In this document: piece by piece, positions 1-64,000 of the stretch
Layout: each line of letters opens with the position of its first letter
Numbering within the stretch: position 1 is the stretch's first letter
DNA from: Escherichia phage APCEc01
Reading direction: 5' to 3' (one strand)
Sequence record: NC_029091.1
Length of the DNA stretch: 64,000 nucleotides
Translations under genes and position numbers: made by a program
Notes under the pieces: generated by a model
The model's input: only the letters and a program-made list of their open reading frames with translations
Databases searched by the model: none
What the model was told of the DNA's origin: nothing

Positions 1-398
1 CACACTAAAGGCTCGTCAGGATATGAAACTAAATTGTAAAATTTCTCACGGTTCTCGTTAATATGATAAAGAATTTGGTCGCCGCCTGCATTAGCATATT
101 TCTGAATAGAAGCTTGATACGCTGCTTCCTGAGATGTAATCCAACCATAATACGGGTCGTAGTTGTCATTACACATCAAAAGGACCCAGTATAATTGAGG
201 GTTGCCATAAATGATATTCGCTAGTTCTTCAGGACGCGGAGAGCCTTTAATATAATAAGAACGTAATCTATAATTGGCAGCAACACGCTTAAAGTACTCT
301 TTATAGTTACGAAATATGTCTGTCATAGGAATAGTAGGTGCATTCTTATCAACTGTTTTAGCACTATATCCTATTGGGTCGAAGAATGTAAATAACAA
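1..398 (-). CDS. 53: baseplate wedge protein gp53-like, N-terminal part (gene runs off the window start)
   Basis: Open minus-strand frame from TTG at 398-396 with AAGGAG 6 nt upstream; translation MLFTFFDPIGYSAKTVDKNAPTIPMTDIFRNYKEYFKR... matches my recollection of T4 gp53; late promoter upstream. Missed by the track because it leaves the window. Confidence 0.6.
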   Translation of the reverse strand, partial: MLFTFFDPIGYSAKTVDKNAPTIPMTDIFRNYKEYFKRVAANYRLRSYYIKGSPRPEELANIIYGNPQLYWVLLMCNDNYDPYYGWITSQEAAYQASIQKYANAGGDQILYHINENREKFYNLVSYPDEPLV

Positions 399-425
399 GA
401 TAGTCTCCTTCCAATATGAAATTGG

Positions 426-433
426 TATAAATA
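426..433 (+). promoter_or_regulatory. late promoter TATAAATA for gene 4
   Basis: Exact T4 late consensus TATAAATA about 27 nt upstream of the gene 4 ATG. Confidence 0.6.
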
Positions 434-440
434 ATAATAC

Positions 441-448
441 TATTTATA
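441..448 (-). promoter_or_regulatory. late promoter TATAAATA (minus strand) for gene 53
   Basis: Reverse complement of TATTTATA is TATAAATA, about 43 nt upstream of the gp53 TTG; divergent with the gene 4 promoter. Confidence 0.55.
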
Positions 449-459
449 AGGAGGACAAC

Positions 460-909
460 ATGGCCTACTCTGGTAAATGGGTCCCAAAAAATTTAAAAAA
501 ATACCGTGGAGACCATACCAAAATAACGTATCGTTCAAACTGGGAAAAATTCTTTTTCGAATGGTTGGATAAAAATCCAGAAATTATTGCATGGGGTAGT
601 GAAACAGCAGTAATTCCATATTTTTGTAATGCTGAAGGTAAGAAACGTCGATACTATATGGACATATGGATGAAAGATGCATCAGGTCAAGAGTTCTTTG
701 TAGAAATAAAACCAAAGAAAGAAACTCAGCCACCTATTAAACCGGTGAATCTTACAACTGCGGCTAAGAAACGTTATATGAATGAAATCTACACGTGGTC
801 TGTGAACTGTGACAAATGGAAAGCTGCCTCAGCTGTTGCTGAAAAGAGAAATATAAAATTTCGAGTTCTAACCGAAGATGGTCTTAGAAAACTCGGATAC
901 AAGGGGTAA
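460..909 (+). CDS. 4: head completion protein gp4
   Basis: ATG at 460 after AAGGAGG; 149 aa starting [11 protein letters not shown]; size and position between 53 and 2 as in T4. Track start 316 is an upstream extension overlapping gp53 on the other strand. Confidence 0.6.
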
Positions 910-911
910 TT

Positions 912-1733
912 ATGAGCATATTCCAAATTATATCTGAAGGCGTACAAGCCCCTAAGATTGCTCAGTCTATGAATGAAAGAAAATGGATTGAGATAGGATT
1001 AGAATACAAGAAAGCTAAAGAGAAAGGAATCACTGCAAAAGCATTTGCAGAATCAAAAGGAATAAAATACTCGTCGTTTACATCTGCAATGTCTAGATAT
1101 GCATCATCTATTAAGACTGCACAGAAAATTGAAACGCTTGAATCTAAACCTAAAAATAAACTCAATAAGCAAGAACGTCAACTTCTGATGATAAACTCGT
1201 TTCGCAGTTCAATACGAGAAAAGATTAGAAATGAAGGCGCAGCAGTAAACAACAAATCATCTAAGTGGTTTGTTGAAACAATTAAAAAAAGTGTAAAAGG
1301 TCATAAAGTAGTCAAGCCTACGCCAGGCAAAATTTATACTTACGTGTATGATGCTAAACATAAAGATACTCTGCCATACTGGGACCGATATCCTTTGATT
1401 ATTTATTTAGGATTAGGTAAACATAATTTGATGTATGGGTTAAACTTGCACTATATCCCACCTAAAGCACGTCAACAGTTTCTTGAAGAATTGCTGAAGC
1501 AATATGCTAGCACAACTACTATTACTAATAACACAAAGTTGAAGATAGACTGGAGCAAGGTGAAAGGATTTCAAGGTGCTGACAAAATGATTAAAGCATA
1601 CCTGCCAGGCCACATTAGAGGAACAATAACAGAAATAGCTCCTAAAGACTGGGCTAACATAATCATGTTACCTACTCAGCAGTTTATGTCAAAAGGAAAA
1701 CGTTTCTCTGCGAATACTGTTTGGAAATCTTAA
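912..1733 (+). CDS. 2: DNA end protector protein gp2-like
   Basis: 273 aa, same size and position as T4 gp2; basic protein; ATG 2 nt after the gp4 stop. Confidence 0.55.
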
Positions 1734-1835
1734 TTCTATTCTCTTCCGTTCTTCTGATATTCTGTTGAACCGGATTAATGGAAGAGACCTAAAACCATTA
1801 TACTGCATTTTTATTAAAGCGTTTTTGAGGTGCTT

Positions 1836-2420
1836 ATGACTCGTCCAACGAGACAGATTTTTAACCAAACAAATATAACAAACTTTGTTGTGGATATCCC
1901 AGATAGTACACGAACTTCAGGTTTTGTGCTCAATGCCCAAACAGCTCCATTGCCAGGTGTGAGAATTCCTGTTGTTGAAACTGTGACAGGCACAATGGGG
2001 TTAGGACGTGCAATGCGTGCAGGCACCACATTTGAATACGACCCTTTTGTTGTACGATTTATAGTTGATGAAGACATGACGTCCTGGATGAACATGTATA
2101 AATGGATGCTCAGCACTAATAACTATATAACCGGACATAATACGGCCCACTCCGATGGTCCTGAGTTTGTTACTTTGCACATTTTAAACAACAATAAGAC
2201 TGAAGTAGTTTTGACGGCGAATTTCTATAAACCATGGATTTCTGATTTGAGTGAAATTGAATTTAGTTACACCGAAGACTCTGACCCTGCCGTTACGTGC
2301 GTAGCAACTATTCACTATGCGTACATGACGATAGAAAAGGATGGTGAAGTCATTGTATCTCAACAACCACGTCAAGCAGTCGAATCTAAATCCATTTCTA
2401 GACACCCTTCCTTGCGTTAA
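1836..2420 (+). CDS. 3: tail completion / sheath stabilizer gp3-like
   Basis: ATG 1836 after GAGG; 194 aa; between gene 2 and gene 1 as in T4. Confidence 0.5.
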   Translation: MTRPTRQIFNQTNITNFVVDIPDSTRTSGFVLNAQTAPLPGVRIPVVETVTGTMGLGRAMRAGTTFEYDPFVVRFIVDEDMTSWMNMYKWMLSTNNYITGHNTAHSDGPEFVTLHILNNNKTEVVLTANFYKPWISDLSEIEFSYTEDSDPAVTCVATIHYAYMTIEKDGEVIVSQQPRQAVESKSISRHPSLR

Positions 2421-2473
2421 TCGCTTCTAGCTCCGTATGTTATAATCACTCATAAATTATATGAGGAAAACCT

Positions 2474-3208
2474 ATGGAGCTAATCTTTTTAAGTGGCATC
2501 AAACGTAGTGGTAAAGACACCACTGCTGATTACATCAATTCAAACTTTAAATCCGTAAAATACCAATTAGCATATCCAATTAAAGACGCTCTAGCAATAG
2601 CCTGGGGACGTAGGCATGCTGAAAATCCTGATGTATTCACAGAGTTGAAATACGAATACTTTGAAGGCATTGGATACGACCGTGAAACACCATTAAATCT
2701 CAATAAGTTGGATGTTATTGAATTATTGGAAGAAGCGCTAATTTATTTGCAAAGTCAATATTTACCGATTAATAATGTTAAAGTATTATCATCGTTAGAA
2801 GGTGGATATTCGTATCTAGATATTAAACCATATGAAGCCCTGCGTGAAGCTATAAATAATATCAACGACACATGGTCAATCCGCCGTCTTATGCAAGCCC
2901 TCGGTACGGATGTTGTCGTTAATTTATTTGACCGTATGTATTGGGTTAAACTTTTTGCATTAAACTATATGGATTATATTGGAAGTGATTTCGATTACTA
3001 TGTTGTGACCGATACACGCCAAGTCCATGAAATGGAAACCGCTAGAGCGATGGGTGCTACAGTTATTCATGTGGTTCGCTCTGGTACGGAATCCACCGAT
3101 AAACATATTACAGAAGCTGGGTTGCCTATTGAAGAAGGCGATTTAGTTATTACAAACGACGGCTCTTTAGAAGAGCTTTATTCTAAAATTGAAACAATCT
3201 TAAGGTAA
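2474..3208 (+). CDS. 1: deoxynucleoside monophosphate kinase gp1
   Basis: 244 aa; N-terminus MELIFLSGIKRSGKDTTADYI with P-loop; close to remembered T4 gp1. Confidence 0.8.
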   Translation: MELIFLSGIKRSGKDTTADYINSNFKSVKYQLAYPIKDALAIAWGRRHAENPDVFTELKYEYFEGIGYDRETPLNLNKLDVIELLEEALIYLQSQYLPINNVKVLSSLEGGYSYLDIKPYEALREAINNINDTWSIRRLMQALGTDVVVNLFDRMYWVKLFALNYMDYIGSDFDYYVVTDTRQVHEMETARAMGATVIHVVRSGTESTDKHITEAGLPIEEGDLVITNDGSLEELYSKIETILR

Positions 3209-3212
3209 TAAA

Positions 3213-3898
<686 letters not shown>

Positions 3899-3911
3899 TT
3901 TTCACAAAACA

Positions 3912-3950
3912 GTTTACATAAAGATGATGGTGTGTTACTATCATCCTATC
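3912..3950 (+). promoter_or_regulatory. early promoter (PeSL-like)
   Basis: GTTTAC -35 at 3912, TACTAT -10 about 18 nt downstream; short inverted repeat ATGAT/ATCAT around the -10. Confidence 0.5.
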
Positions 3951-3975
3951 AAATAAACAGCCTCAAGGAAATAAA

Positions 3976-4263
3976 ATGAAATCCTATAAAGAATTTATAT
4001 CACCTTTTGCTAACGTTTCTACTCTGACCGAAGCAACCCTTACTTCCGAAGTTATTAAAGCAAATAAAGGACGTGAGGGTAAACCAATGATTAGCCTGGT
4101 TGACGGCGAAGAAGTAAAAGGTACTGTTTACTTAGGGGATGGATGGTCTGCTAAGAAAGACGGCGCTACTATTGTTATCTCTCCGGCCGAAGAGACTGCA
4201 CTGTTTAAAGCTAAGCATATTTCTGTAGCTCAGCTTAAAATTATTGCAAAAACTCTTCTGTAA
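3976..4263 (+). CDS. ipI: internal head protein (IPI-like) with capsid targeting sequence
   Basis: 95 aa; N-terminus MKSYKEFISPF resembles the MKTYQEFIAE targeting sequence of T4 internal proteins; next to 57B as T4 ipI. Confidence 0.55.
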   Translation: MKSYKEFISPFANVSTLTEATLTSEVIKANKGREGKPMISLVDGEEVKGTVYLGDGWSAKKDGATIVISPAEETALFKAKHISVAQLKIIAKTLL

Positions 4264-4266
4264 GTA

Positions 4267-4306
4267 GTTTACATGCTGATAGGACTATGTTATAGTAGTC
4301 CTATCA
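4267..4306 (+). promoter_or_regulatory. early promoter (PeSL type)
   Basis: GTTTAC at 4267, TATAGT at 4291; inverted repeat TAGGACTA / TAGTCCTA flanks the -10; followed by CTATCAAAACAA box. Confidence 0.6.
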
Positions 4307-7172: not shown

Positions 7173-7204
7173 GTATCTAGGGCATAAAAATATTTCATAA
7201 AGAT

Positions 7205-7245
7205 GTTTACTTCTTCTAAGGACATGATACTATAGACTTATCAAC
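7205..7245 (+). promoter_or_regulatory. early promoter (PeSL type)
   Basis: GTTTAC at 7205, TACTAT 17 nt downstream, then TAGACTTATCAAC box. Confidence 0.55.
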
Positions 7246-7261
7246 CATAGAGGAAAATGTT

Positions 7262-7765
7262 ATGAGTCTTTACACTGAACTGAATAAAAAATCTGAAGAA
7301 TCTGCTGAAACTATTTTTAAAAACGTGCAAAAGCGTATTTTGGAAAAGATGTACGATGCAGCATCTAAAGGTGAAAAATCTTGCCGGTTTCCGATGAGGT
7401 GTTCTTCTGATTTATGCGCAAATACTATTGAATGGCTGGAAAGTGAAGGTCTTACGGTAGAGAAAAACCCGGCGACTTCTATTGACGGCGAATCATATAT
7501 TAGTATTTCTTGGGATAAATCAAGGGTAGAAGAGAAAGATGGTGATTGGGTTGTAGATGTTAAAACTTCTGATGGTGGACGTTCTGTTGAAGTTTCAGCT
7601 GTAGTTAAAGGCACCCACGAACAAAGGACTTGGGGTTGGGGTGGTGAAGAAAAAGAAATTGTTCTTAGTGTGATTGCCAGGTCAACTAGTAATAAAATTG
7701 CACAAAGCATCATTGACGCTGCAATTGCTGAAGCAGAAAAAATTTGCAAAATTAAAAATAAATGA
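7262..7765 (+). CDS. hypothetical protein
   Basis: 167 aa; AGAGGA RBS; antisense ORF 7270..7779 judged spurious. Confidence 0.5.
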   Translation: MSLYTELNKKSEESAETIFKNVQKRILEKMYDAASKGEKSCRFPMRCSSDLCANTIEWLESEGLTVEKNPATSIDGESYISISWDKSRVEEKDGDWVVDVKTSDGGRSVEVSAVVKGTHEQRTWGWGGEEKEIVLSVIARSTSNKIAQSIIDAAIAEAEKICKIKNK

Positions 7766-32914: not shown

Positions 32915-33085
32915 ATGCAAGTTAAATTATTGTACCGTTTATTAAAAAATGGCAAACACGATTGGTATTTGCTTATTAAAACCGATCCGAATTTTTTCTC
33001 TGGACAACCATTTACAGTTCGTCCTACTAAACGTCAGCTTCGCAAAGCTAAACGTTCTCATCGTAACTTTTATAGAGAATATTGA
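32915..33085 (+). CDS. small basic protein with C-terminal VRPTKRQLRK tail
   Basis: ATG 32915; 56 aa; C-terminus resembles that of ORF 61315..61527. Confidence 0.35.
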   Translation: MQVKLLYRLLKNGKHDWYLLIKTDPNFFSGQPFTVRPTKRQLRKAKRSHRNFYREY

Positions 33086-57330: not shown

Positions 57331-58503
57331 ATGTCTGATTTAAAATCTCGTCTGATTAAAGCTTCTACTTCTAAAATGACTGCAGACTTGACTAAGTCTA
57401 AGCTGTTTAATAATCGTGATGAAGTCCCTACTCGTATTCCGATGTTGAATATTGCACTAGGTGGTGCACTGAATGCTGGGTTGCAATCAGGCTTAACTAT
57501 TTTTGCTGCTCCTTCTAAACACTTTAAAACATTGTTTGGGCTGACCATGGTTGCAGCATATATGAAGAAATATAAAGATGCAATCTGTTTGTTTTATGAC
57601 TCAGAATTCGGTGCTTCAGAATCTTATTTTCGTTCAATGGGTGTTGATTTAGACCGTGTAGTTCATACTCCGATTCAATCTGTCGAACAACTTAAAGTTG
57701 ATATGACTAATCAGCTTGACGCGATTGAACGCGGTGATAAAGTTATTATCTTTATCGATTCAATCGGTAATACTGCATCTAAGAAAGAAACCGAAGATGC
57801 GTTGAACGAGAAAGTTGTAGGTGATATGTCTCGTGCTAAGGCACTTAAATCTCTGTTCCGCATTGTGACCCCGTATCTGACTATTAAAGATATTCCGTGT
57901 GTTGCAATTAACCATACCGCAATGGAAATCGGCGGACTATATCCTAAAGAGATTATGGGTGGTGGTACAGGTATTCTTTACTCTGCTAACACTGTATTCT
58001 TTATCTCTAAACGTCAGGTTAAAGAAGGTACAGAATTGACCGGTTATGACTTCACGTTGAAAGCAGAAAAATCTCGTACAGTTAAAGAGAAATCTACTTT
58101 CCCGATCACGGTTAATTTTGATGGCGGTATTGATCCATTCAGTGGCTTGTTAGAAATGGCAACTGAAATTGGATTTGTTGTTAAGCCTAAAGCTGGTTGG
58201 TATGCTCGTGAATTCCTTGACGAAGAAACAGGTGAAATGATTCGTGAAGAGAAATCGTGGCGTGCTAAAGCTACTGATTGTGTAGAATTCTGGGGTCCGT
58301 TGTTTAAACACAAACCTTTCCGTGACGCAATTGAAACTAAATATAAACTAGGTGCTATCTCTTCTATTAAAGAAGTTGATGACGCTGTTAATGACCTTAT
58401 TAATTGCAAAGCAACAACTAAAGTTCCGGTTAAAACTTCTGATGCTCCGTCTGCAGCAGATATAGAAAACGACCTTGACGAAATGGAAGATTTCGATGAA
58501 TAA
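57331..58503 (+). CDS. uvsX: recombinase UvsX (RecA-like)
   Basis: 390 aa; MSDLKSRLIKASTSKMTADLTKSKLFNNRDEVPTRIPMLNIALGG...; Walker A GPSKHFKT; matches T4 UvsX. Confidence 0.93.
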   Translation: MSDLKSRLIKASTSKMTADLTKSKLFNNRDEVPTRIPMLNIALGGALNAGLQSGLTIFAAPSKHFKTLFGLTMVAAYMKKYKDAICLFYDSEFGASESYFRSMGVDLDRVVHTPIQSVEQLKVDMTNQLDAIERGDKVIIFIDSIGNTASKKETEDALNEKVVGDMSRAKALKSLFRIVTPYLTIKDIPCVAINHTAMEIGGLYPKEIMGGGTGILYSANTVFFISKRQVKEGTELTGYDFTLKAEKSRTVKEKSTFPITVNFDGGIDPFSGLLEMATEIGFVVKPKAGWYAREFLDEETGEMIREEKSWRAKATDCVEFWGPLFKHKPFRDAIETKYKLGAISSIKEVDDAVNDLINCKATTKVPVKTSDAPSAADIENDLDEMEDFDE

Positions 58504-58846: not shown

Positions 58847-60289
58847 GTGGTAGAAATTATTTTGTCTCATCTCGTATATGACCAGGCTTATTTTTCTAAG
58901 GTCTGGCCTTATATGGATTCTGAGTATTTTGAGCGTGGACCGGCAAAAAATGTCTTTAAAATTATAAAGAGCCACGTTAACGAATATAATGCAATGCCAT
59001 CTATCAATGCGTTAAAGGTGGCTTTAGATAACAGTTCTTTAACTGAAGCCGAATATAAAGGAACTTCAGACCTAATTGAAAAATTGGCTGATACTCCTGA
59101 AGACCACGAATGGTTGGTTAAAGAAACTGAGAAATATGTCCAGCAAAAAGCGATGTATAATGCTACATCCAAAATCATTGAGATTCAGTCTAATGCTGAA
59201 CTACCTCCGGAACAACGTAACAAGAAAATGCCTGACGTAGGAGCTATTCCTGATATTATGCGTCAAGCACTTTCAATTTCGTTCGATAGTTATGTTGGGC
59301 ATGACTGGATGGAAGACTATGAAGCACGTTGGCTTTCTTATCTAAATAAAGCACGTAAGGTCCCGTTCAAATTAAACATTTTGAATAAAATCACTAAAGG
59401 TGGTGCTGAAACCGGTACACTAAACGTTTTAATGGCTGGTGTTAACGTCGGTAAATCTTTAGGCCTTTGTTCACTTGCTGCAGATTATCTTCAAACAGGG
59501 CATAATGTTCTTTATATTTCCATGGAAATGGCTGAAGAAGTTTGTGCTAAGCGTATAGATGCAAACATGCTTGACGTATCACTTGATGATATTGATGATG
59601 GTAACGTATCTTATGCTGAATATAAAGCCAAGATGGAAAAATGGCGTTCAAAAACAACATTAGGACGTTTAGTAGTTAAACAGTATCCTACTGGTGGAGC
59701 TAATGCTAATACATTTCGTGCATTGCTTAATGAGTTAAAACTTAAGAAGAACTTTGTGCCATCTGTAATCATGGTTGATTACTTAGGTATTTGTGGGTCT
59801 TGTCGTATCAGAGTTTACACTGAAAATAGCTACACATTAGTTAAAGCTATCGCAGAAGAACTTCGTGCATTAGCAGTAGAATCTGAAACAGTTCTATGGA
59901 CTGCAGCTCAAGTAGGACGTGCAGCATGGGATGCTTCAGACATGAACATGAGTGATATCGCAGAATCAGCAGGTTTACCAGCAACGGCAGATTTCATGTT
60001 GGCTGTAATTGAAACCGAAGAACTTGCACAAGCTGAACAACAACTTATCAAACAAATCAAATCACGATACGGCGATAAGAATAAGTGGAATAAATTCCTG
60101 ATGGGTGTACGTAAAGGCAATCAGAAATGGGTTGAGATTGAGCAAGAAGGCATGAACACACCTAACACAGTAAATGAAAACGCAGGTGCTCAGATGCGTC
60201 AGGCAGAGGTGAATCGTACGGAACGCGTAGGTAAAGCCAAAGCAACACGTGCGGACCTAGATAGCTTAGCCAATGAGTTAAAATTTTAA
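58847..60289 (+). CDS. 41: replicative DNA helicase gp41 (DnaB-like)
   Basis: GTG start after AAGGAG; MVEIILSHLVYDQAYFSKVWPYMDSEYFE...; Walker A GVNVGKS; 480 aa; matches T4 gp41. Confidence 0.93.
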   Translation: MVEIILSHLVYDQAYFSKVWPYMDSEYFERGPAKNVFKIIKSHVNEYNAMPSINALKVALDNSSLTEAEYKGTSDLIEKLADTPEDHEWLVKETEKYVQQKAMYNATSKIIEIQSNAELPPEQRNKKMPDVGAIPDIMRQALSISFDSYVGHDWMEDYEARWLSYLNKARKVPFKLNILNKITKGGAETGTLNVLMAGVNVGKSLGLCSLAADYLQTGHNVLYISMEMAEEVCAKRIDANMLDVSLDDIDDGNVSYAEYKAKMEKWRSKTTLGRLVVKQYPTGGANANTFRALLNELKLKKNFVPSVIMVDYLGICGSCRIRVYTENSYTLVKAIAEELRALAVESETVLWTAAQVGRAAWDASDMNMSDIAESAGLPATADFMLAVIETEELAQAEQQLIKQIKSRYGDKNKWNKFLMGVRKGNQKWVEIEQEGMNTPNTVNENAGAQMRQAEVNRTERVGKAKATRADLDSLANELKF

Positions 60290-60295
60290 TAAAAA

Positions 60296-60316
60296 GGAGA
60301 CTTCGGTCTCCTTTCG
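60296..60316 (+). terminator. rho-independent terminator
   Basis: GGAGAC-TTCG-GTCTCC hairpin followed by TTTCGGGGTTT. Confidence 0.6.
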
Positions 60317-60318
60317 GG

Positions 60319-60350
60319 GTTTACATCTTCCTCTAGGCATGATATGATGT
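60319..60350 (+). promoter_or_regulatory. early promoter
   Basis: GTTTAC at 60319, TATGAT about 18 nt downstream. Confidence 0.45.
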
Positions 60351-60377
60351 ACTTACACAAACCAAGAGGAAAACATT

Positions 60378-60752
60378 ATGAATATGTCTCAAGCAATTTT
60401 TACTGCAATCACCGAAAACACAACTGTTGAAGTAGTTTCTCCGCTGGCAACCTACGTTATTCTTGCTCCTAAAACTATTGTATCTCGTATGGAAAACACA
60501 GGCAAACGTATCGTACAAATAGTTGGAGCTGGAAATCAAAAACTTGATTATCTACGAACCATAAAAGCTTATGAACATTTCCAACTCGAAAAAGGTTCTC
60601 CTATCCAGGTAGAACTCGTAAATGGTGATATCGTTCGAGCAATGTTCCATCATTTCTATGCATTGAATGACCCATCTAAAGCAGTTCGTTTAATTGCATA
60701 CGACGCAAACCAAAACGAAATCAACGCAGATGTATCTAAATTACGTTTTTAA
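60378..60752 (+). CDS. hypothetical protein
   Basis: 124 aa; AAGAGGAAAA RBS. Confidence 0.5.
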   Translation: MNMSQAIFTAITENTTVEVVSPLATYVILAPKTIVSRMENTGKRIVQIVGAGNQKLDYLRTIKAYEHFQLEKGSPIQVELVNGDIVRAMFHHFYALNDPSKAVRLIAYDANQNEINADVSKLRF

Positions 60753-60800
60753 GTTTACTTCTCCAGTAGTTGTGTTATTATAGACCTATCAACTACTGGA
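60753..60800 (+). promoter_or_regulatory. early promoter (PeSL type)
   Basis: GTTTAC at 60753, TATTAT at 60776, inverted repeat TCCAGTAGTTG / CAACTACTGGA. Confidence 0.6.
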
Positions 60801-60807
60801 GAACAAA

Positions 60808-61125
60808 ATGAAAACCATCGATTGTAAAGCAGAATTTAAGATTTTTTATCACGGTTCAAGTAGTTCAGCTAACATCGAAAACATGCTTTGTCCTCCTGAA
60901 GAAACAGGAGTTCTGTCTGAAACTGGACGTAAGAAAAACTTGGATCGTGTATTCTTTACTGAAGATATCGGTTTAGCAAAGATTTATGCAGGACGAGCAG
61001 CACGCTCTTATGGAGGTGAACCACGTCTCTATCGAGTAATTTCTCCGGTAGATGTAGTTCAAATGAATGATACTAAAGGCGCTACAGTTTATCACGCTGA
61101 ATGGGCATTTTGCGAGGAAATATGA
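60808..61125 (+). CDS. hypothetical protein (speculative ADP-ribosyltransferase-like His/Glu pattern)
   Basis: 105 aa; FYHGSS ... KIYAG ... YHAEW segments; assignment speculative. Confidence 0.45.
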   Translation: MKTIDCKAEFKIFYHGSSSSANIENMLCPPEETGVLSETGRKKNLDRVFFTEDIGLAKIYAGRAARSYGGEPRLYRVISPVDVVQMNDTKGATVYHAEWAFCEEI

Positions 61126-61313
61126 GCAAATTAACTAAAGTTACTTTTATCGGTTGGTTTAAAAGCGGTGAGATGTTCACTAAAGATATCATGTTATCAG
61201 GTGATCGCGAAGAAATCGAGTGGGTTACGGTACAACTTGCTGAAGTGAACAATGCATTAGTTAAAGCATTTATTAATGACGAGAAAGTTTTTGAAGCTGA
61301 TTTCAGAGGATAA
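61122..61313 (+). CDS. dmd: Dmd (discriminator of mRNA degradation; antitoxin against RnlA/LsoA-type RNases)
   Basis: ATG 61122; MSKLTKVTFIGWFKSGEMFTKDIML...VNNALVKAFINDEKVFEADFRG resembles T4 Dmd; 63 aa. Confidence 0.7.
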   Translation: MSKLTKVTFIGWFKSGEMFTKDIMLSGDREEIEWVTVQLAEVNNALVKAFINDEKVFEADFRG

Positions 61314-61314
61314 T

Positions 61315-61527
61315 ATGTATTCAACTGTGTTTAAACCATCAACATACGAATTTGCATCAACTACACAATGGAAAGCTCTTATTCTGGAAGGATGGGAACT
61401 AATGATGGACTGCGAAGCATCTGAAAAGTTTCCACACGGCAAAGTGGACTTCGTTAAATTTGCTGTACGTCCGACTAAACGACAGATTCGTCAAGAAAAA
61501 CGCAAATTTCGCAAAAGTTTAAAATAG
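61315..61527 (+). CDS. small basic protein with C-terminal VRPTKRQIRQ tail
   Basis: ATG 61315; 70 aa; C-terminus parallels ORF 32915..33085. Confidence 0.4.
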   Translation: MYSTVFKPSTYEFASTTQWKALILEGWELMMDCEASEKFPHGKVDFVKFAVRPTKRQIRQEKRKFRKSLK

Positions 61528-61529
61528 CT

Positions 61530-61560
61530 GTTTACAAGCACCACATACTGTGTTACTATC
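61530..61560 (+). promoter_or_regulatory. early promoter
   Basis: GTTTAC at 61530, TACTAT at 61554. Confidence 0.5.
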
Positions 61561-61587
61561 TTTCTATCAACTACAGAGGAAATTGAA

Positions 61588-61956
61588 ATGAAAAAATTAA
61601 TCGCTTTAGCAATGGTGTTTGGATTAACCGGATGTGGTGCCCATGGCTTTATCCCTAATAACGTCGGCCAATTGATTTACAATCCGAATGTTAAACAGTA
61701 CGACCAACCTAAAGTTGAAGTGGAAGACCCGGTTACTGTAGGTAATCGAATGATTCAAGCTGATGCCCATGCTCAACGTTATCGTGACTCTGATACCGTA
61801 GCATTGTCAAAAGAACAACGCGTTAAAGAACATTGTCTACAGGCTACTGAAATCGCATTCATTCGCTATGTTGAAACAACTGGTAAAGAGCCTACCCAGA
61901 AACAAATCGCGAATAACTACGTCCAGTGTATTGAACGTTTAAACAAATTTAATTAA
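61588..61956 (+). CDS. lipoprotein
   Basis: 122 aa; signal peptide with lipobox LTGC (MKKLIALAMVFGLTGCG). Confidence 0.55.
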   Translation: MKKLIALAMVFGLTGCGAHGFIPNNVGQLIYNPNVKQYDQPKVEVEDPVTVGNRMIQADAHAQRYRDSDTVALSKEQRVKEHCLQATEIAFIRYVETTGKEPTQKQIANNYVQCIERLNKFN

Positions 61957-61959
61957 TTG

Positions 61960-61990
61960 GTTTACGCAAAAGTTAAAACAAGATACTATA
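61960..61990 (+). promoter_or_regulatory. early promoter
   Basis: GTTTAC at 61960, TACTAT at 61984. Confidence 0.5.
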
Positions 61991-62017
61991 AACATAACAA
62001 ATCAAGAGGAAATTAAC

Positions 62018-62266
62018 ATGGAATTATTCGTAGCTAGTTCAGTGGCAGTTTTAATCGCAGGTATTGGTTCAATCATCATTTACATGTTGCCTTGGGTAAT
62101 CGCACTTATTCGTGGCACAAAAAGCACAACAGCAATCTTCTTTGTATCTTTACTCTTTAACTGGACGATGGTTGGTTGGATTGGAACTTTAATTTGGTCT
62201 ATCGTTGCCGAAAAGAAATCGGCTCAGCAGCCTCAACAAGTAATTATTATTCGTGAAAAAGAATAA
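62018..62266 (+). CDS. small inner-membrane protein
   Basis: 82 aa; two TM helices. Confidence 0.5.
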   Translation: MELFVASSVAVLIAGIGSIIIYMLPWVIALIRGTKSTTAIFFVSLLFNWTMVGWIGTLIWSIVAEKKSAQQPQQVIIIREKE

Positions 62267-62270
62267 ACTT

Positions 62271-62310
62271 GTTTACATTATGGATGGACTATAGTATAAT
62301 AGTCCTATCA
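62271..62310 (+). promoter_or_regulatory. early promoter (PeSL type)
   Basis: GTTTAC at 62271, TATAAT at 62295, inverted repeat GGACTAT / ATAGTCC. Confidence 0.6.
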
Positions 62311-62329
62311 AATCAACTAAGGAGTTAAA

Positions 62330-62623
62330 ATGAAAAAGTTATCATTGGCAGCAATCTTACTTGCAGTATCATGTGCACCGGCTCCAGTTACGGCAGGTTA
62401 TGATAAAGACCTCTGTGAGTGGTCAATGACTGCAAATCAAGAAGATGTTGAACAACAAATCTTCTCTGATATCATGAACATCACTAAACGAGACCGTCCT
62501 AATATGGTTAATAAAGTTGTTGAACAACTTAAGTCTGGTGGTATCATGCAGTACAACTATGTTTTGTATTGTGACCCTAATTTCGATAACAAAGATATCG
62601 TAACCGAAATCACAGGTGAATAA
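62330..62623 (+). CDS. sp: Spackle (Sp) periplasmic superinfection-exclusion / lysozyme-inhibitor protein
   Basis: 97 aa; signal peptide then GYDKDLCEWSMTANQEDVEQQI...SGGIMQYNYVLYCDPNFDNKDIVTEITGE matches remembered T4 Sp. Confidence 0.7.
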   Translation: MKKLSLAAILLAVSCAPAPVTAGYDKDLCEWSMTANQEDVEQQIFSDIMNITKRDRPNMVNKVVEQLKSGGIMQYNYVLYCDPNFDNKDIVTEITGE

Positions 62624-62624
62624 T

Positions 62625-63275
62625 ATGATTTATTATATGCACAAAAATCCACCGTTTAAATACGGTAAATTTCCTGATGCACAATGTTATAATATAACGC
62701 CTGATGAAAACAATCGTGGATATCATATTGGTGTAATTTTTGTAATTGTTAAAGATAACGAAATCGTTGCCTGGGCAGATTTTAAAGGTACAACATATGA
62801 TGTTAATCCTGTGCCTTTCACATATTACAATATAATGGATTTGGCATATGATTATAATTGGTTTAATCATGACACGTTGGCTCATATTGAAGGTGTAGGA
62901 TTTGACATCTCTTATTCTAGCTATTCATTATGTCCTATGAGCCGAGCTCACGGTAAAGATGCCTCATATTTTTCATTTCGGAAACGTGTAAACTTCAAAC
63001 GTAGTACAGAGTATGTTGGTGGACTCTTTGTTAAAGATAATAAAATAACCCGTATTAGTTATCCTCTAAGTGTAGGCCAAAAAGATGTTGATGTTGATTT
63101 AGACTTAACTGAAAATAACATTAATCGTATTGCTTCTGTATATTTTGATATCGATGAAAAAATTGTAGTGTGTGGATATGAATTACCACCTGAAGAAAAG
63201 GCTGAAGCAATTGAAGTCGAATTAGAAATTTCTGTCGATGACCAAATATTTAATGCATTTATGAATCGAGGTTAA
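62625..63275 (+). CDS. hypothetical protein
   Basis: ATG 62625 just after sp stop; 216 aa. Confidence 0.5.
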   Translation: MIYYMHKNPPFKYGKFPDAQCYNITPDENNRGYHIGVIFVIVKDNEIVAWADFKGTTYDVNPVPFTYYNIMDLAYDYNWFNHDTLAHIEGVGFDISYSSYSLCPMSRAHGKDASYFSFRKRVNFKRSTEYVGGLFVKDNKITRISYPLSVGQKDVDVDLDLTENNINRIASVYFDIDEKIVVCGYELPPEEKAEAIEVELEISVDDQIFNAFMNRG

Positions 63276-63276
63276 A

Positions 63277-63474
63277 ATGACTACTGCAATTTGCACTGGT
63301 TCTAAAATTAGTGTTTTTACAAGTTTTGAAGATTATGAAGTTGTTTCAAAACACCAATGCCATATTAGCGTAAAAGCTAATGACGGTGTAATTTGGAATA
63401 TTCCACAGTATGAAGGCACTACATATGAAGTCACAGATATAAATGGTGACAAAGCAATCTTTGTAATTGATTAA
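63277..63474 (+). CDS. hypothetical small protein
   Basis: 65 aa. Confidence 0.4.
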   Translation: MTTAICTGSKISVFTSFEDYEVVSKHQCHISVKANDGVIWNIPQYEGTTYEVTDINGDKAIFVID

Positions 63475-63493
63475 ATATACTCAGGAGGTACCT

Positions 63494-63961
63494 ATGGGTA
63501 TTATTAACACTGCAATAGATTCTGTTTACGCATATAAGTTTATTCGACTAATGCAAAAACCTTTTACCGAATGGAAAGCATATGAAGCCAAAATCATCGA
63601 TGAACGTGGAAGTGTTCTTAAACGCCCTTCTACTCCTGAAGAGAAAGCGGCTTATACACCTTTTCATGCTTCAGTTCGTTCAATGAAGCGAATGATGAGC
63701 ACTGTTCCAGGTCTTAATGGAATGGCCTCAATGATGTCTGCTTGGAGTGCTGTAGCTTCACGCTATAACATTACGGAAGAACAACAGAAAGAAATATTTA
63801 AAGAACTCCCTTTATTTGAGGATATGGTTGCTGGCGATTCAGGTGGCAGCCCTCAAGCTATTGCATCAGGAACAACTACAGGTGCAATTGTAAATAAAGG
63901 TCCCGAACAAATTCCTTCCAAGAAAAGAAAGCGAATTAAAGTAAATATTAATAAGTTGTGA
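63494..63961 (+). CDS. hypothetical protein
   Basis: ATG 63494 after AGGAGG; 155 aa; C-terminal KKRKRIK basic tail. Confidence 0.5.
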   Translation: MGIINTAIDSVYAYKFIRLMQKPFTEWKAYEAKIIDERGSVLKRPSTPEEKAAYTPFHASVRSMKRMMSTVPGLNGMASMMSAWSAVASRYNITEEQQKEIFKELPLFEDMVAGDSGGSPQAIASGTTTGAIVNKGPEQIPSKKRKRIKVNINKL

Positions 63962-64000
63962 TAAGATGGCCTTATTAATTTAAGGCCTCTGGAGAATACT

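Follow-up and report, generated by a model that had tools for sequence, protein, structure and literature searches.

The RB69-type accessory region between genes 41 and 61 of Escherichia phage APCEc01: toxin inhibitors, superinfection-exclusion genes and a predicted Arr-like ADP-ribosyltransferase

What brings together the genes lying between gene 41 and gene 61, both essential for replication, in Escherichia phage APCEc01, and what might they do for the phage? The question was approached with a 64,000-nucleotide (nt) stretch of the genome [NC_029091.1], referred to below as the window, in which a first-pass annotation made from the sequence alone had recognized, downstream of gene 41, an island for superinfection exclusion and anti-toxin functions. 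Our answer, held with high confidence where the identities of the genes are concerned, is that this block is the RB69-type (Mosigvirus) form of the T-even accessory region found between these two genes. Gene identity, gene order, coupling, promoter motifs and the allele of adfA are established directly here; the activities of the proteins are taken from published work on T4 and RB69, the Dmd, TifA and Imm proteins of RB69 being 100% identical to those of the window. The region is already known biology: the RB69 annotation names dmd, 61.4, imm.1, imm, sp, 61.2 and 61.1, and an "anti-toxin-antitoxin (anti-TA) island" was published in 2022 [PMC9391042].

In a nucleotide search the 3.7 kb lying 3' of gene 41 matched 358 phage records. 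The best match was Escherichia phage vB_EcoM_SCS57 (99.7% identity), whose linear record ends at the end of the window, followed by some 150 other Mosigvirus genomes including RB69 at 97.9%; by its sequence the APCEc01 stretch is thus of the RB69-like (Mosigvirus) type. Genes were compared with the annotations of RB69 (NC_004928, region RB69p031–p041) and SCS57, and T4 homologues were sought at the 41–61 and 42–43 loci. Upstream of the block the window carries uvsX (57331–58503), gene 40 and the helicase gene 41 (58847–60289), the product of which is 99.8% identical to RB69 gp41 and 85.6% identical to that of T4. The interval from gene 41 to gene 61 measures 3,711 bp and holds ten genes, all on the + strand, with open reading frames (ORFs) spanning 60378–63961. 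Their order is ORF124 (ORF041c), ORF105 (ORF040c), dmd, tifA, imm.1, imm, sp, adfA, ORF65 (ORF033c) and a long form of 61.1. The ATG of RB69 gene 61 lies at position 7710 of the RB69 locus and the last base of the window aligns to 7709, so that gene 61 itself is absent from the window and its start is expected at position 64001.

Dmd (gene 61.5; 61122–61313, 63 amino acids [aa]) was identified through the Pfam Dmd family [76.6 bits with a cut-off of 27, 1.8e-21, PF17587], the match covering residues 11–70 of a 70-aa ORF and profile positions 3–60 of 60. The protein is 58% identical to T4 Dmd (tblastn, as for the other T4 identities given for proteins of the block) and shares every residue (100%) with the RB69 Dmd that has been crystallised [PDB 5I8J]. 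A further match is to chain B of 5HY3, which was deposited as "Antitoxin Dmd" and which we take to be the Dmd-RnlA complex. Based upon this relatedness Dmd here would be an inhibitor of RnlA/LsoA RNase toxins; its role against RNase LS/RnlA, worked out in T4, has been reviewed [PMC3014915].

The gene which follows, tifA (61.4; 61315–61527, 70 aa), encodes a protein with a Pfam DUF7279 domain [71.7 bits, cut-off 24.5, PF23945] that is 100% identical to RB69 gp61.4 and 57% identical to its T4 homolog. Srikant et al. (2022) renamed 61.4 tifA on recognizing its product as a ToxN inhibitor, and found that RB69 TifA, which is 56% identical to T4 TifA and is without the C-terminal extension of the latter, is the stronger inhibitor of the two [PMC9391042]. 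According to Guegler et al. (2023) TifA binds both ToxN and RNA, and possesses a Pro-Thr motif (P53 T54 in RB69 TifA) together with a basic helix [PMC10853763]. The Pro-Thr motif followed by the basic cluster is present in the window (P53-T54-KRQIRQEKRKFRK), and TifA here presumably binds and inhibits the ToxN RNase as well. Elsewhere in the window, at 32915–33085 (+), a 56-aa ORF belongs to the same family [DUF7279, 54.5 bits, cut-off 24.5; phrog_3272] and displays the motif F.VRPTKRQ.R..KR as in TifA. This gene may specify a second inhibitor of ToxN-type RNases.

AdfA (gene 61.2; 62625 or 62637 to 63275, 216 or 212 aa) matches its Pfam family in full length [profile positions 1–211 of 211; 410 bits, cut-off 27, PF23813] and is 67–69% identical to T4 gp61.2; no solved-structure relative was found in a PDB search. 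Residue 164, in RB69 numbering, is Arg (NINRIASVYF), the equivalent T4 residue being His. RB69 AdfA with Arg164 neither binds nor neutralizes DarT1, whereas the R164H variant and the T4-type His allele do both; the Arg164 carriers reported are RB69, Bas46 and Bas47 [PMC11257639]. Since the protein of the window has Arg164, no protection from E. coli DarT1 is predicted through adfA, and we regard AdfA here as a member of the family with an allele predicted from its sequence to be inactive against the tested DarT1. The start of the gene is ambiguous. The RB69 annotation uses the ATG equivalent to 62637 (MHKN, 212 aa), which is also the numbering base for R164, and the SCS57 annotation uses a start four codons upstream at 62625 (MIYYMHKN, 216 aa), from where the T4 protein (MLYQMHK) also aligns.

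Three further products would be associated with the cell envelope. Imm.1 (61588–61956, 122 aa) matches DUF5481 [37.3 bits] and carries a hydrophobic segment followed by the lipobox LTGC at residues 13–16, with Cys16 and a Gly at +2 (MKKLIALAMVFGLTGC). T4 Imm.1, with which it shares 32% identity, has the lipobox LAGC. On the strength of the LTGC motif the protein is a predicted lipoprotein. Imm (62018–62266, 82 aa) matches Imm_superinfect [56.9 bits, cut-off 27.9, PF14373], shows two hydrophobic stretches by hydropathy (residues 1–34 and 40–59) and is 64% identical to T4 Imm. Sp (gene 61.3; 62330–62623, 97 aa) matches T4_Spackle [145 bits, cut-off 27, PF25676; match 1–96 of 96], is 66% identical to T4 Sp and possesses a hydrophobic segment at residues 4–24 and a signal peptide at residues 1–22. 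It matches the T4 Spackle structures 6X6O, 6XC0, 6XC1 and 7CN6, the mature chain of 7CN6 aligning from residue 23; these entries presumably include the Sp-lysozyme complex. From established T4 work and the notes of the RB69 annotation, Imm acts by keeping DNA from entering, and Sp as an inhibitor of the incoming phage's tail lysozyme. The whole window holds one imm and one imm.1, both in this block, and because the imm.1–imm pair sits here and not between genes 43 and 42 as in T4, imm and sp are now neighbours in this lineage.

These identities bear upon the first-pass annotation, which had recognized ORFs for dmd, a lipoprotein, a two-transmembrane protein and spackle after gene 41. All four are found on the + strand within 60378–63961, and alignment shows the dmd and spackle ORFs to be related to Dmd and Sp, at the T4 identities given above and with Dmd equal to the RB69 crystal sequence, so that the observation is confirmed. 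It was also correct in stating that gene 61 is not reached in the window and that the block is at least as large as its T4 counterpart (3,711 bp and ten genes here, 1,648 bp and five genes in T4). Although dmd does lie downstream of the helicase gene, it does not follow it directly but is third, after the 124-aa and 105-aa ORFs. The genes named were correct; ORF105 (ORF040c), tifA, adfA, the 65-aa ORF and the 155-aa 61.1 homolog had been left out, and the two-transmembrane protein had not been named as Imm. The anti-toxin content is larger than stated, TifA (anti-ToxN) and AdfA (anti-DarT) also being present, and the proposal of a superinfection-exclusion and anti-toxin island fits the "anti-TA island" of Srikant et al. 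(2022) [PMC9391042].

How might this block be expressed? Both strands of the window were scanned for the T4-early type form GTTTAC-N(16–18)-TAnnnT, which occurs 24 times on the + strand and twice on the − strand. Five of the motifs, starting at 60319, 60753, 61530, 61960 and 62271, are located in the block, one in each of its five intergenic gaps, and four of the five putative promoters were recovered by a generic sigma-70 scan. They are, all on the + strand, P1 ((G)TTTACA-17-TATGAT with TG, 60320–60348) upstream of ORF124, P2 (TTTACT-16-TATTAT with TG, 60754–60781) upstream of ORF105, P3 (TTTACA-17-TACTAT with TG, 61531–61559) upstream of imm.1, P4 ((G)TTTACG-17-TACTAT, 61961–61989) upstream of imm and P5 (TTTACA-17-TATAAT, 11 of 12 matches, 62272–62300) upstream of sp. 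The stop codon of ORF105 overlaps the ATG of dmd (ATGA), and tifA follows after a 1-nt spacer. Because no intergenic gap precedes dmd, tifA, adfA, ORF65 or 61.1, these genes are without a promoter of their own. The earlier suggestion of an early promoter for each gene thus holds for the lipoprotein, imm and sp but not for dmd, which shares P2 with ORF105 and tifA. We suggest that P1 would direct early transcription of ORF124 alone, P2 that of the three translationally coupled genes ORF105–dmd–tifA, P3 that of imm.1 and P4 that of imm, and that the P5 unit would comprise sp–adfA–ORF65–61.1 and continue toward gene 61.

Directly after the gene 41 stop codon there is a hairpin (60293–60314, +) with a 9-bp stem and a UUCG loop, followed by UUUC [−12.8 kcal/mol, z −3.4]. 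It is terminator-like, and in several relatives the corresponding sequence carries a "terminator" annotation. Composite promoter/stem-loop cassettes (PeSLs) have been proposed as drivers of gene shuffling in T4-type hyperplastic regions [PMC4122927], and by analogy the gene 41 hairpin and P1 might form a composite terminator/promoter which is PeSL-like. Measured against this PeSL description, the pattern is clear at the 41/ORF124 junction and at P2, and weak or absent at P3, P4 and P5. P2 lies within an inverted repeat (60759–60803) that has a perfect 14-bp stem [DNA fold z −5.2 for region 60750–60812] and extends from just 3' of the −35 element to the Shine-Dalgarno sequence. The 3' arm of this repeat alone would be present in the transcript; as DNA the repeat could act as a PeSL-like recombination module. 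Direct repeats in the block (families D1, D2 and D5) are made up of recurring promoter and leader sequences. A generic terminator scan returned one site, inside ORF105, which is fewer than in shuffled sequence and was disregarded.

If the published activities carry over to APCEc01, the block would act on two fronts. In the cytoplasm Dmd would block the RnlA/LsoA RNase toxins and TifA would inhibit ToxN, while AdfA would be a DarT-binding factor with an allele which is probably ineffective on DarT1. On the envelope side, DNA entry by later T-even phages would be stopped by Imm of the inner membrane, periplasmic Sp would inhibit the tail lysozyme (gp5) of incoming phages, and the lipoprotein Imm.1, the gene for which adjoins imm upstream in T4 and here, may also act at the envelope, perhaps in exclusion. 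The island would have been put together from promoter-led cassettes and be expressed early.

Several points weigh against this reading. Five of the ten genes (ORF124, ORF105, imm.1, ORF65 and 61.1) are without demonstrated function, so that a functional island comprising the entire block is more than the data can bear out. Co-location is not conserved, as homologs of ORF105 occur at unrelated loci in other genera and imm.1–imm is found elsewhere in T4. One "anti-toxin", the R164 form of AdfA, is not expected to work on the only DarT1 tested [PMC11257639]. Lastly, the five block promoters are motif matches only, and P4 scores under the threshold of the generic sigma-70 scan.

One alternative is that the clustering has no functional meaning. 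The gap between genes 41 and 61 would be a permissive "hyperplastic region" that collects PeSL-flanked early-gene cassettes by recombination, and the mixture of genes would be a historical accident. Each cassette does open with a near-identical early promoter and leader; P2 is embedded in its 14-bp-stem inverted repeat and the terminator-like hairpin abuts P1, as in PeSLs [PMC4122927]. In T4 it is genes 43 and 42 that flank the imm.1–imm pair, and in Aeromonas phage 44RR2.8t an ORF105 homolog is located between hoc and 24. An accident, however, would have to account for three independently validated toxin inhibitors standing together in both T4 and RB69 [PMC9391042], for the exclusion genes imm and sp having become neighbours here, and for the order 41–ORF124-like–ORF105–...dmd–61.4–sp having been kept in a Dhakavirus. 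We consider this alternative unlikely, though worth keeping in mind. It concerns origin and not function, and is compatible with the island as proposed above.

The gene of the block which deserves most attention is ORF105 (RB69ORF040c; 60808–61125, 105 aa), which opens the P2 unit. Its family has members in 608 phage records and is strikingly conserved, with 60–89% identity among phages from Escherichia, Klebsiella, Enterobacter, Proteus, Pectobacterium, Aeromonas, Acinetobacter and Vibrio hosts. The gene lies 3' of gene 41 in Mosigvirus and Dhakavirus, and upstream of sp–61.1–61 in Acinetobacter phage Acj61. In the latter (stretch 249–4297) approximately 1 kb separates the homolog from upstream genes with the annotations nicotinamide phosphoribosyltransferase and ribose-phosphate pyrophosphokinase, so that in Acj61 an NAD+-consuming fold adjoins NAD+ salvage genes.

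As a single sequence ORF105 gave no Pfam match even at E ≤ 10 (PF12120 included) and none in NCBIfam or the PDB, nor did the close-family profile (A1) match any PDB entry. An exhaustive profile search collected 224 clusters, among which several relatives [1e-23 to 1e-27] carry the same domain and in that domain hit Pfam Arr-ms [26.9–29.4 bits, cut-off 25, PF12120]. When the alignment was broadened down to 30% identity (A2) its profile matched Arr alone in the PDB [6e-4, 2HW2 and 9IAF; 0.12, ARR-2]. The link to Arr was therefore seen only after the exhaustive search and the broadened alignment, the direct searches having given nothing. BFVD contributed a match to a viral "Rifampin ADP-ribosyl transferase" entry [1.3e-7], and a few GenBank records label homologs "ADP-ribosyl transferase". 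A confident AlphaFold model built from 26 sequences [predicted local distance difference test score (pLDDT) 84.4, predicted template modelling score (pTM) 0.76] has the ADP-ribosyltransferase (ART) fold.

His15, Gly16, Pro29, Glu38, Arg41, Ala57 and Tyr60 are invariant in alignment A2. Against Arr, His15 corresponds to His19 (the HG[ST] motif being aligned) and Phe49 stands opposite Tyr49; no position could be assigned to the third, acidic residue. In Arr the His, the Tyr and the acidic residue reportedly have catalytic or NAD-related roles. The ORF105-type domain is also found in large multidomain proteins, where it is joined to ART-PolyVal, NUDIX, GNAT or Toprim domains, or to a lambda-type portal and a 2H/Acb1-like domain; this is a "polyvalent protein" setting, the giant proteins in question belonging to other mobile elements.

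Based upon its fold and remote homology ORF105 is predicted to be a minimal NAD+-using ADP-ribosyltransferase of the Arr clade. If its position in the operon and its occurrence in phage polyvalent proteins are also considered, it is probably a further early host-modifying or counter-defence enzyme. We offer more tentatively, as a possibility that we would rate at somewhat under even, the fuller proposal that it is an active minimal enzyme of this clade, produced early and coupled to dmd and tifA, which modifies a conserved host molecule; candidates are an RNA, a small molecule or a protein of a defence system. If true, ORF105 would be the fourth factor of the island, an enzymatic one serving counter-defence or host takeover. 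The literature search found no paper on ORF040c or ORF041c, nor on Arr-type ARTs in T4-like phages; in the part consulted of a 2022 survey on viral NAD+/ADP-ribose systems, the Arr-family ARTs named are all from phages of Microbacterium, Gordonia and Sinorhizobium [PMC9503650].

Small binders or sponges are common among the anti-defence proteins of phages, and ORF105 might likewise be a catalytically inactive binder with an ART fold, for example one that acts as a sponge for NAD+/ADP-ribose or that draws off a host defence protein as its decoy. This would suit the Phe49 aligned with the NAD-contacting Tyr49 of Arr, the lack of an assignable third catalytic position and the fact that Glu103 is not conserved in distant relatives. 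It is harder to reconcile with the invariance of His15-Gly16, Glu38, Arg41 and Tyr60 in relatives down to 30% identity, and with the company that the domain keeps in multidomain proteins (NUDIX, GNAT, ART-PolyVal and 2H), which is typical of active effector modules. We think an inactive binder improbable.

A second alternative is a Tpt1/KptA-like RNA-end processor. Tpt1 has a separate RNA-binding lobe, for which ORF105 leaves little room, being just 105 aa in length as compared with 178–206 aa for the matched Tpt1 chains. Acting on RNAs which the RNase toxins of the host have cleaved, ORF105 would remove or cap their phosphates and thereby complement Dmd and TifA. In favour stand its co-operonic, translationally coupled position beside two inhibitors of endoribonuclease toxins and the KptA-type ARTs known in large phages [PMC9503650], but this reading is very unlikely, since the profile affinity is to Arr and not to Tpt1 and the Pfam and PHROG scans of the block revealed no RNA ligase or 2H phosphoesterase gene adjoining it.

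ORF105 was matched among reference families by a PHROG only, and the same is true of ORF124 (RB69ORF041c; 60378–60752, 124 aa; phrog_10668), ORF65 (RB69ORF033c; 63277–63474, 65 aa; phrog_3249) and the long 61.1 (63494–63961, 155 aa; phrog_2086); all of these PHROGs are of unknown function. ORF124, without a match in Pfam, NCBIfam or the PDB, falls into two database clusters only, being restricted to Mosigvirus apart from one relative at 52% and a syntenic Dhakavirus homolog at 35–36% identity. For ORF65 neither Pfam nor the PDB gave a match, and no relatives of known function were detected. An Rfam scan of 60200–64000 returned a single sub-threshold miRNA match, which we put down to chance.

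The long 61.1 is helical in its N-terminal part and ends in a disordered, basic C-terminus that bears the motif MVAGDSGG...GTTTGA.VNKGP, and it is kept directly upstream of the primase gene in many Straboviridae. Its AlphaFold2 model is poor [pLDDT 62] and the fold matches generic and uninformative. T4 gp61.1 (54 aa) corresponds to its C-terminal third, with 67–72% identity over 40–48 residues (approximately residues 102–149; tblastn). The 155-aa gene is intact in the window and in most relatives. The RB69 reference (locus 7204–7670) lacks 1 nt of an A-run, GAGAAAGCG having become GAGAAGCG, and its gene is thereby broken up into "ORF032c" and "gp61.1".

T4 gp61.1 (T4 locus 3467–3631) begins MKTFKEFIKE, which is identical at seven of ten positions to the internal-protein targeting sequence. 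This segment corresponds to an internal conserved (L/I)xE site situated just before MVAGDSGG in the long form, the homologous residues of which are KEIFKELPLFE. It may hint at processing by the prohead protease or at packaging, or may be coincidence. That its N-terminus might mark T4 gp61.1 as a capsid-targeted internal protein is offered as a side note only, the homologous segment being internal in the long form. In another part of the window, a cluster of small ORFs (15384, 16145, 16469 and 16809, +; also 3976 and 6674) displays N-termini of the form MKTY.EF..E. They look like the sequence which directs the internal head proteins of T4 to the capsid, and this cluster is presumably the internal-protein locus of the phage.

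A second hairpin (63964–63990, +) is located between 61.1 and the gene 61 ribosome-binding site [−13.6 kcal/mol, z −3.0]. Its stem, GGCCTTA/TAAGGCC, is common to APCEc01 (window 63968–63987) and RB69 (locus 7677–7696). The 6-nt loop reads TTAATT here and is the reverse complement, AATTAA, in RB69, which looks like a hairpin-loop inversion.

In practical terms the block provides a map of the toxin-antitoxin defences which this phage should evade: RnlAB and LsoAB by means of Dmd, and ToxIN by means of a potent RB69-type TifA. DarTG1 is probably not evaded through this locus, given the R164 of AdfA. The remaining interest lies in the uncharacterized genes found in proven anti-defence company, chiefly the conserved Arr-like mini-ADP-ribosyltransferase ORF105, which occurs in about 600 Straboviridae genomes and is the one fresh lead and a sensible candidate for counter-defence screens.

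How do ORF105 and the block compare with known systems? Arr [PF12120; PDB 2HW2, 9IAF] is the sole PDB family matched by the ORF105 family profile, and the more remote relatives within that family score above the Arr-ms gathering threshold. ORF105 differs from Arr in its length (105 aa versus 143 aa), in having Phe where Arr has Tyr49 and in itself lacking a PF12120 match; furthermore, its carriers are lytic T4-like phages, where it belongs to an early counter-defence operon, and there is no evidence for action on rifamycins. With AcrF11, an anti-CRISPR ADP-ribosyltransferase [PDB 6KYF], there is a functional analogy only, no sequence relationship having been detected.

The 41–61 region of RB69 is alike in gene order and content at 97.9% nucleotide identity, and its Dmd, TifA, Imm and ORF033c proteins are 100% identical to those of the window. 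AdfA differs from that of RB69 at 3.3% of residues, with R164 in both, and the 61.1 gene is intact here, unlike that of the RB69 reference with its 1-nt deletion. In T4 the same two genes flank dmd–61.4–sp–61.2–61.1, the relative order of which is as in APCEc01, and early promoters again lie upstream of dmd–tifA and of sp. The T4 interval is the smaller, at 1,648 bp with five genes versus 3,711 bp with ten, because ORF124, ORF105, imm.1–imm, ORF65 and some 100 extra N-terminal residues on 61.1 are additional in the window. T4 has its imm.1–imm pair in the interval from gene 43 to gene 42, and in both phages imm.1 immediately precedes imm; dmd is promoter-proximal in T4 and second in its operon here; TifA has a C-terminal extension in T4 and none in the window; and AdfA residue 164 is His in T4 and Arg here. 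The Dhakavirus arrangement proceeds from gene 41 to an ORF124-like gene and ORF105 and thereafter to dmd, 61.4 and sp, the order that is seen in APCEc01.

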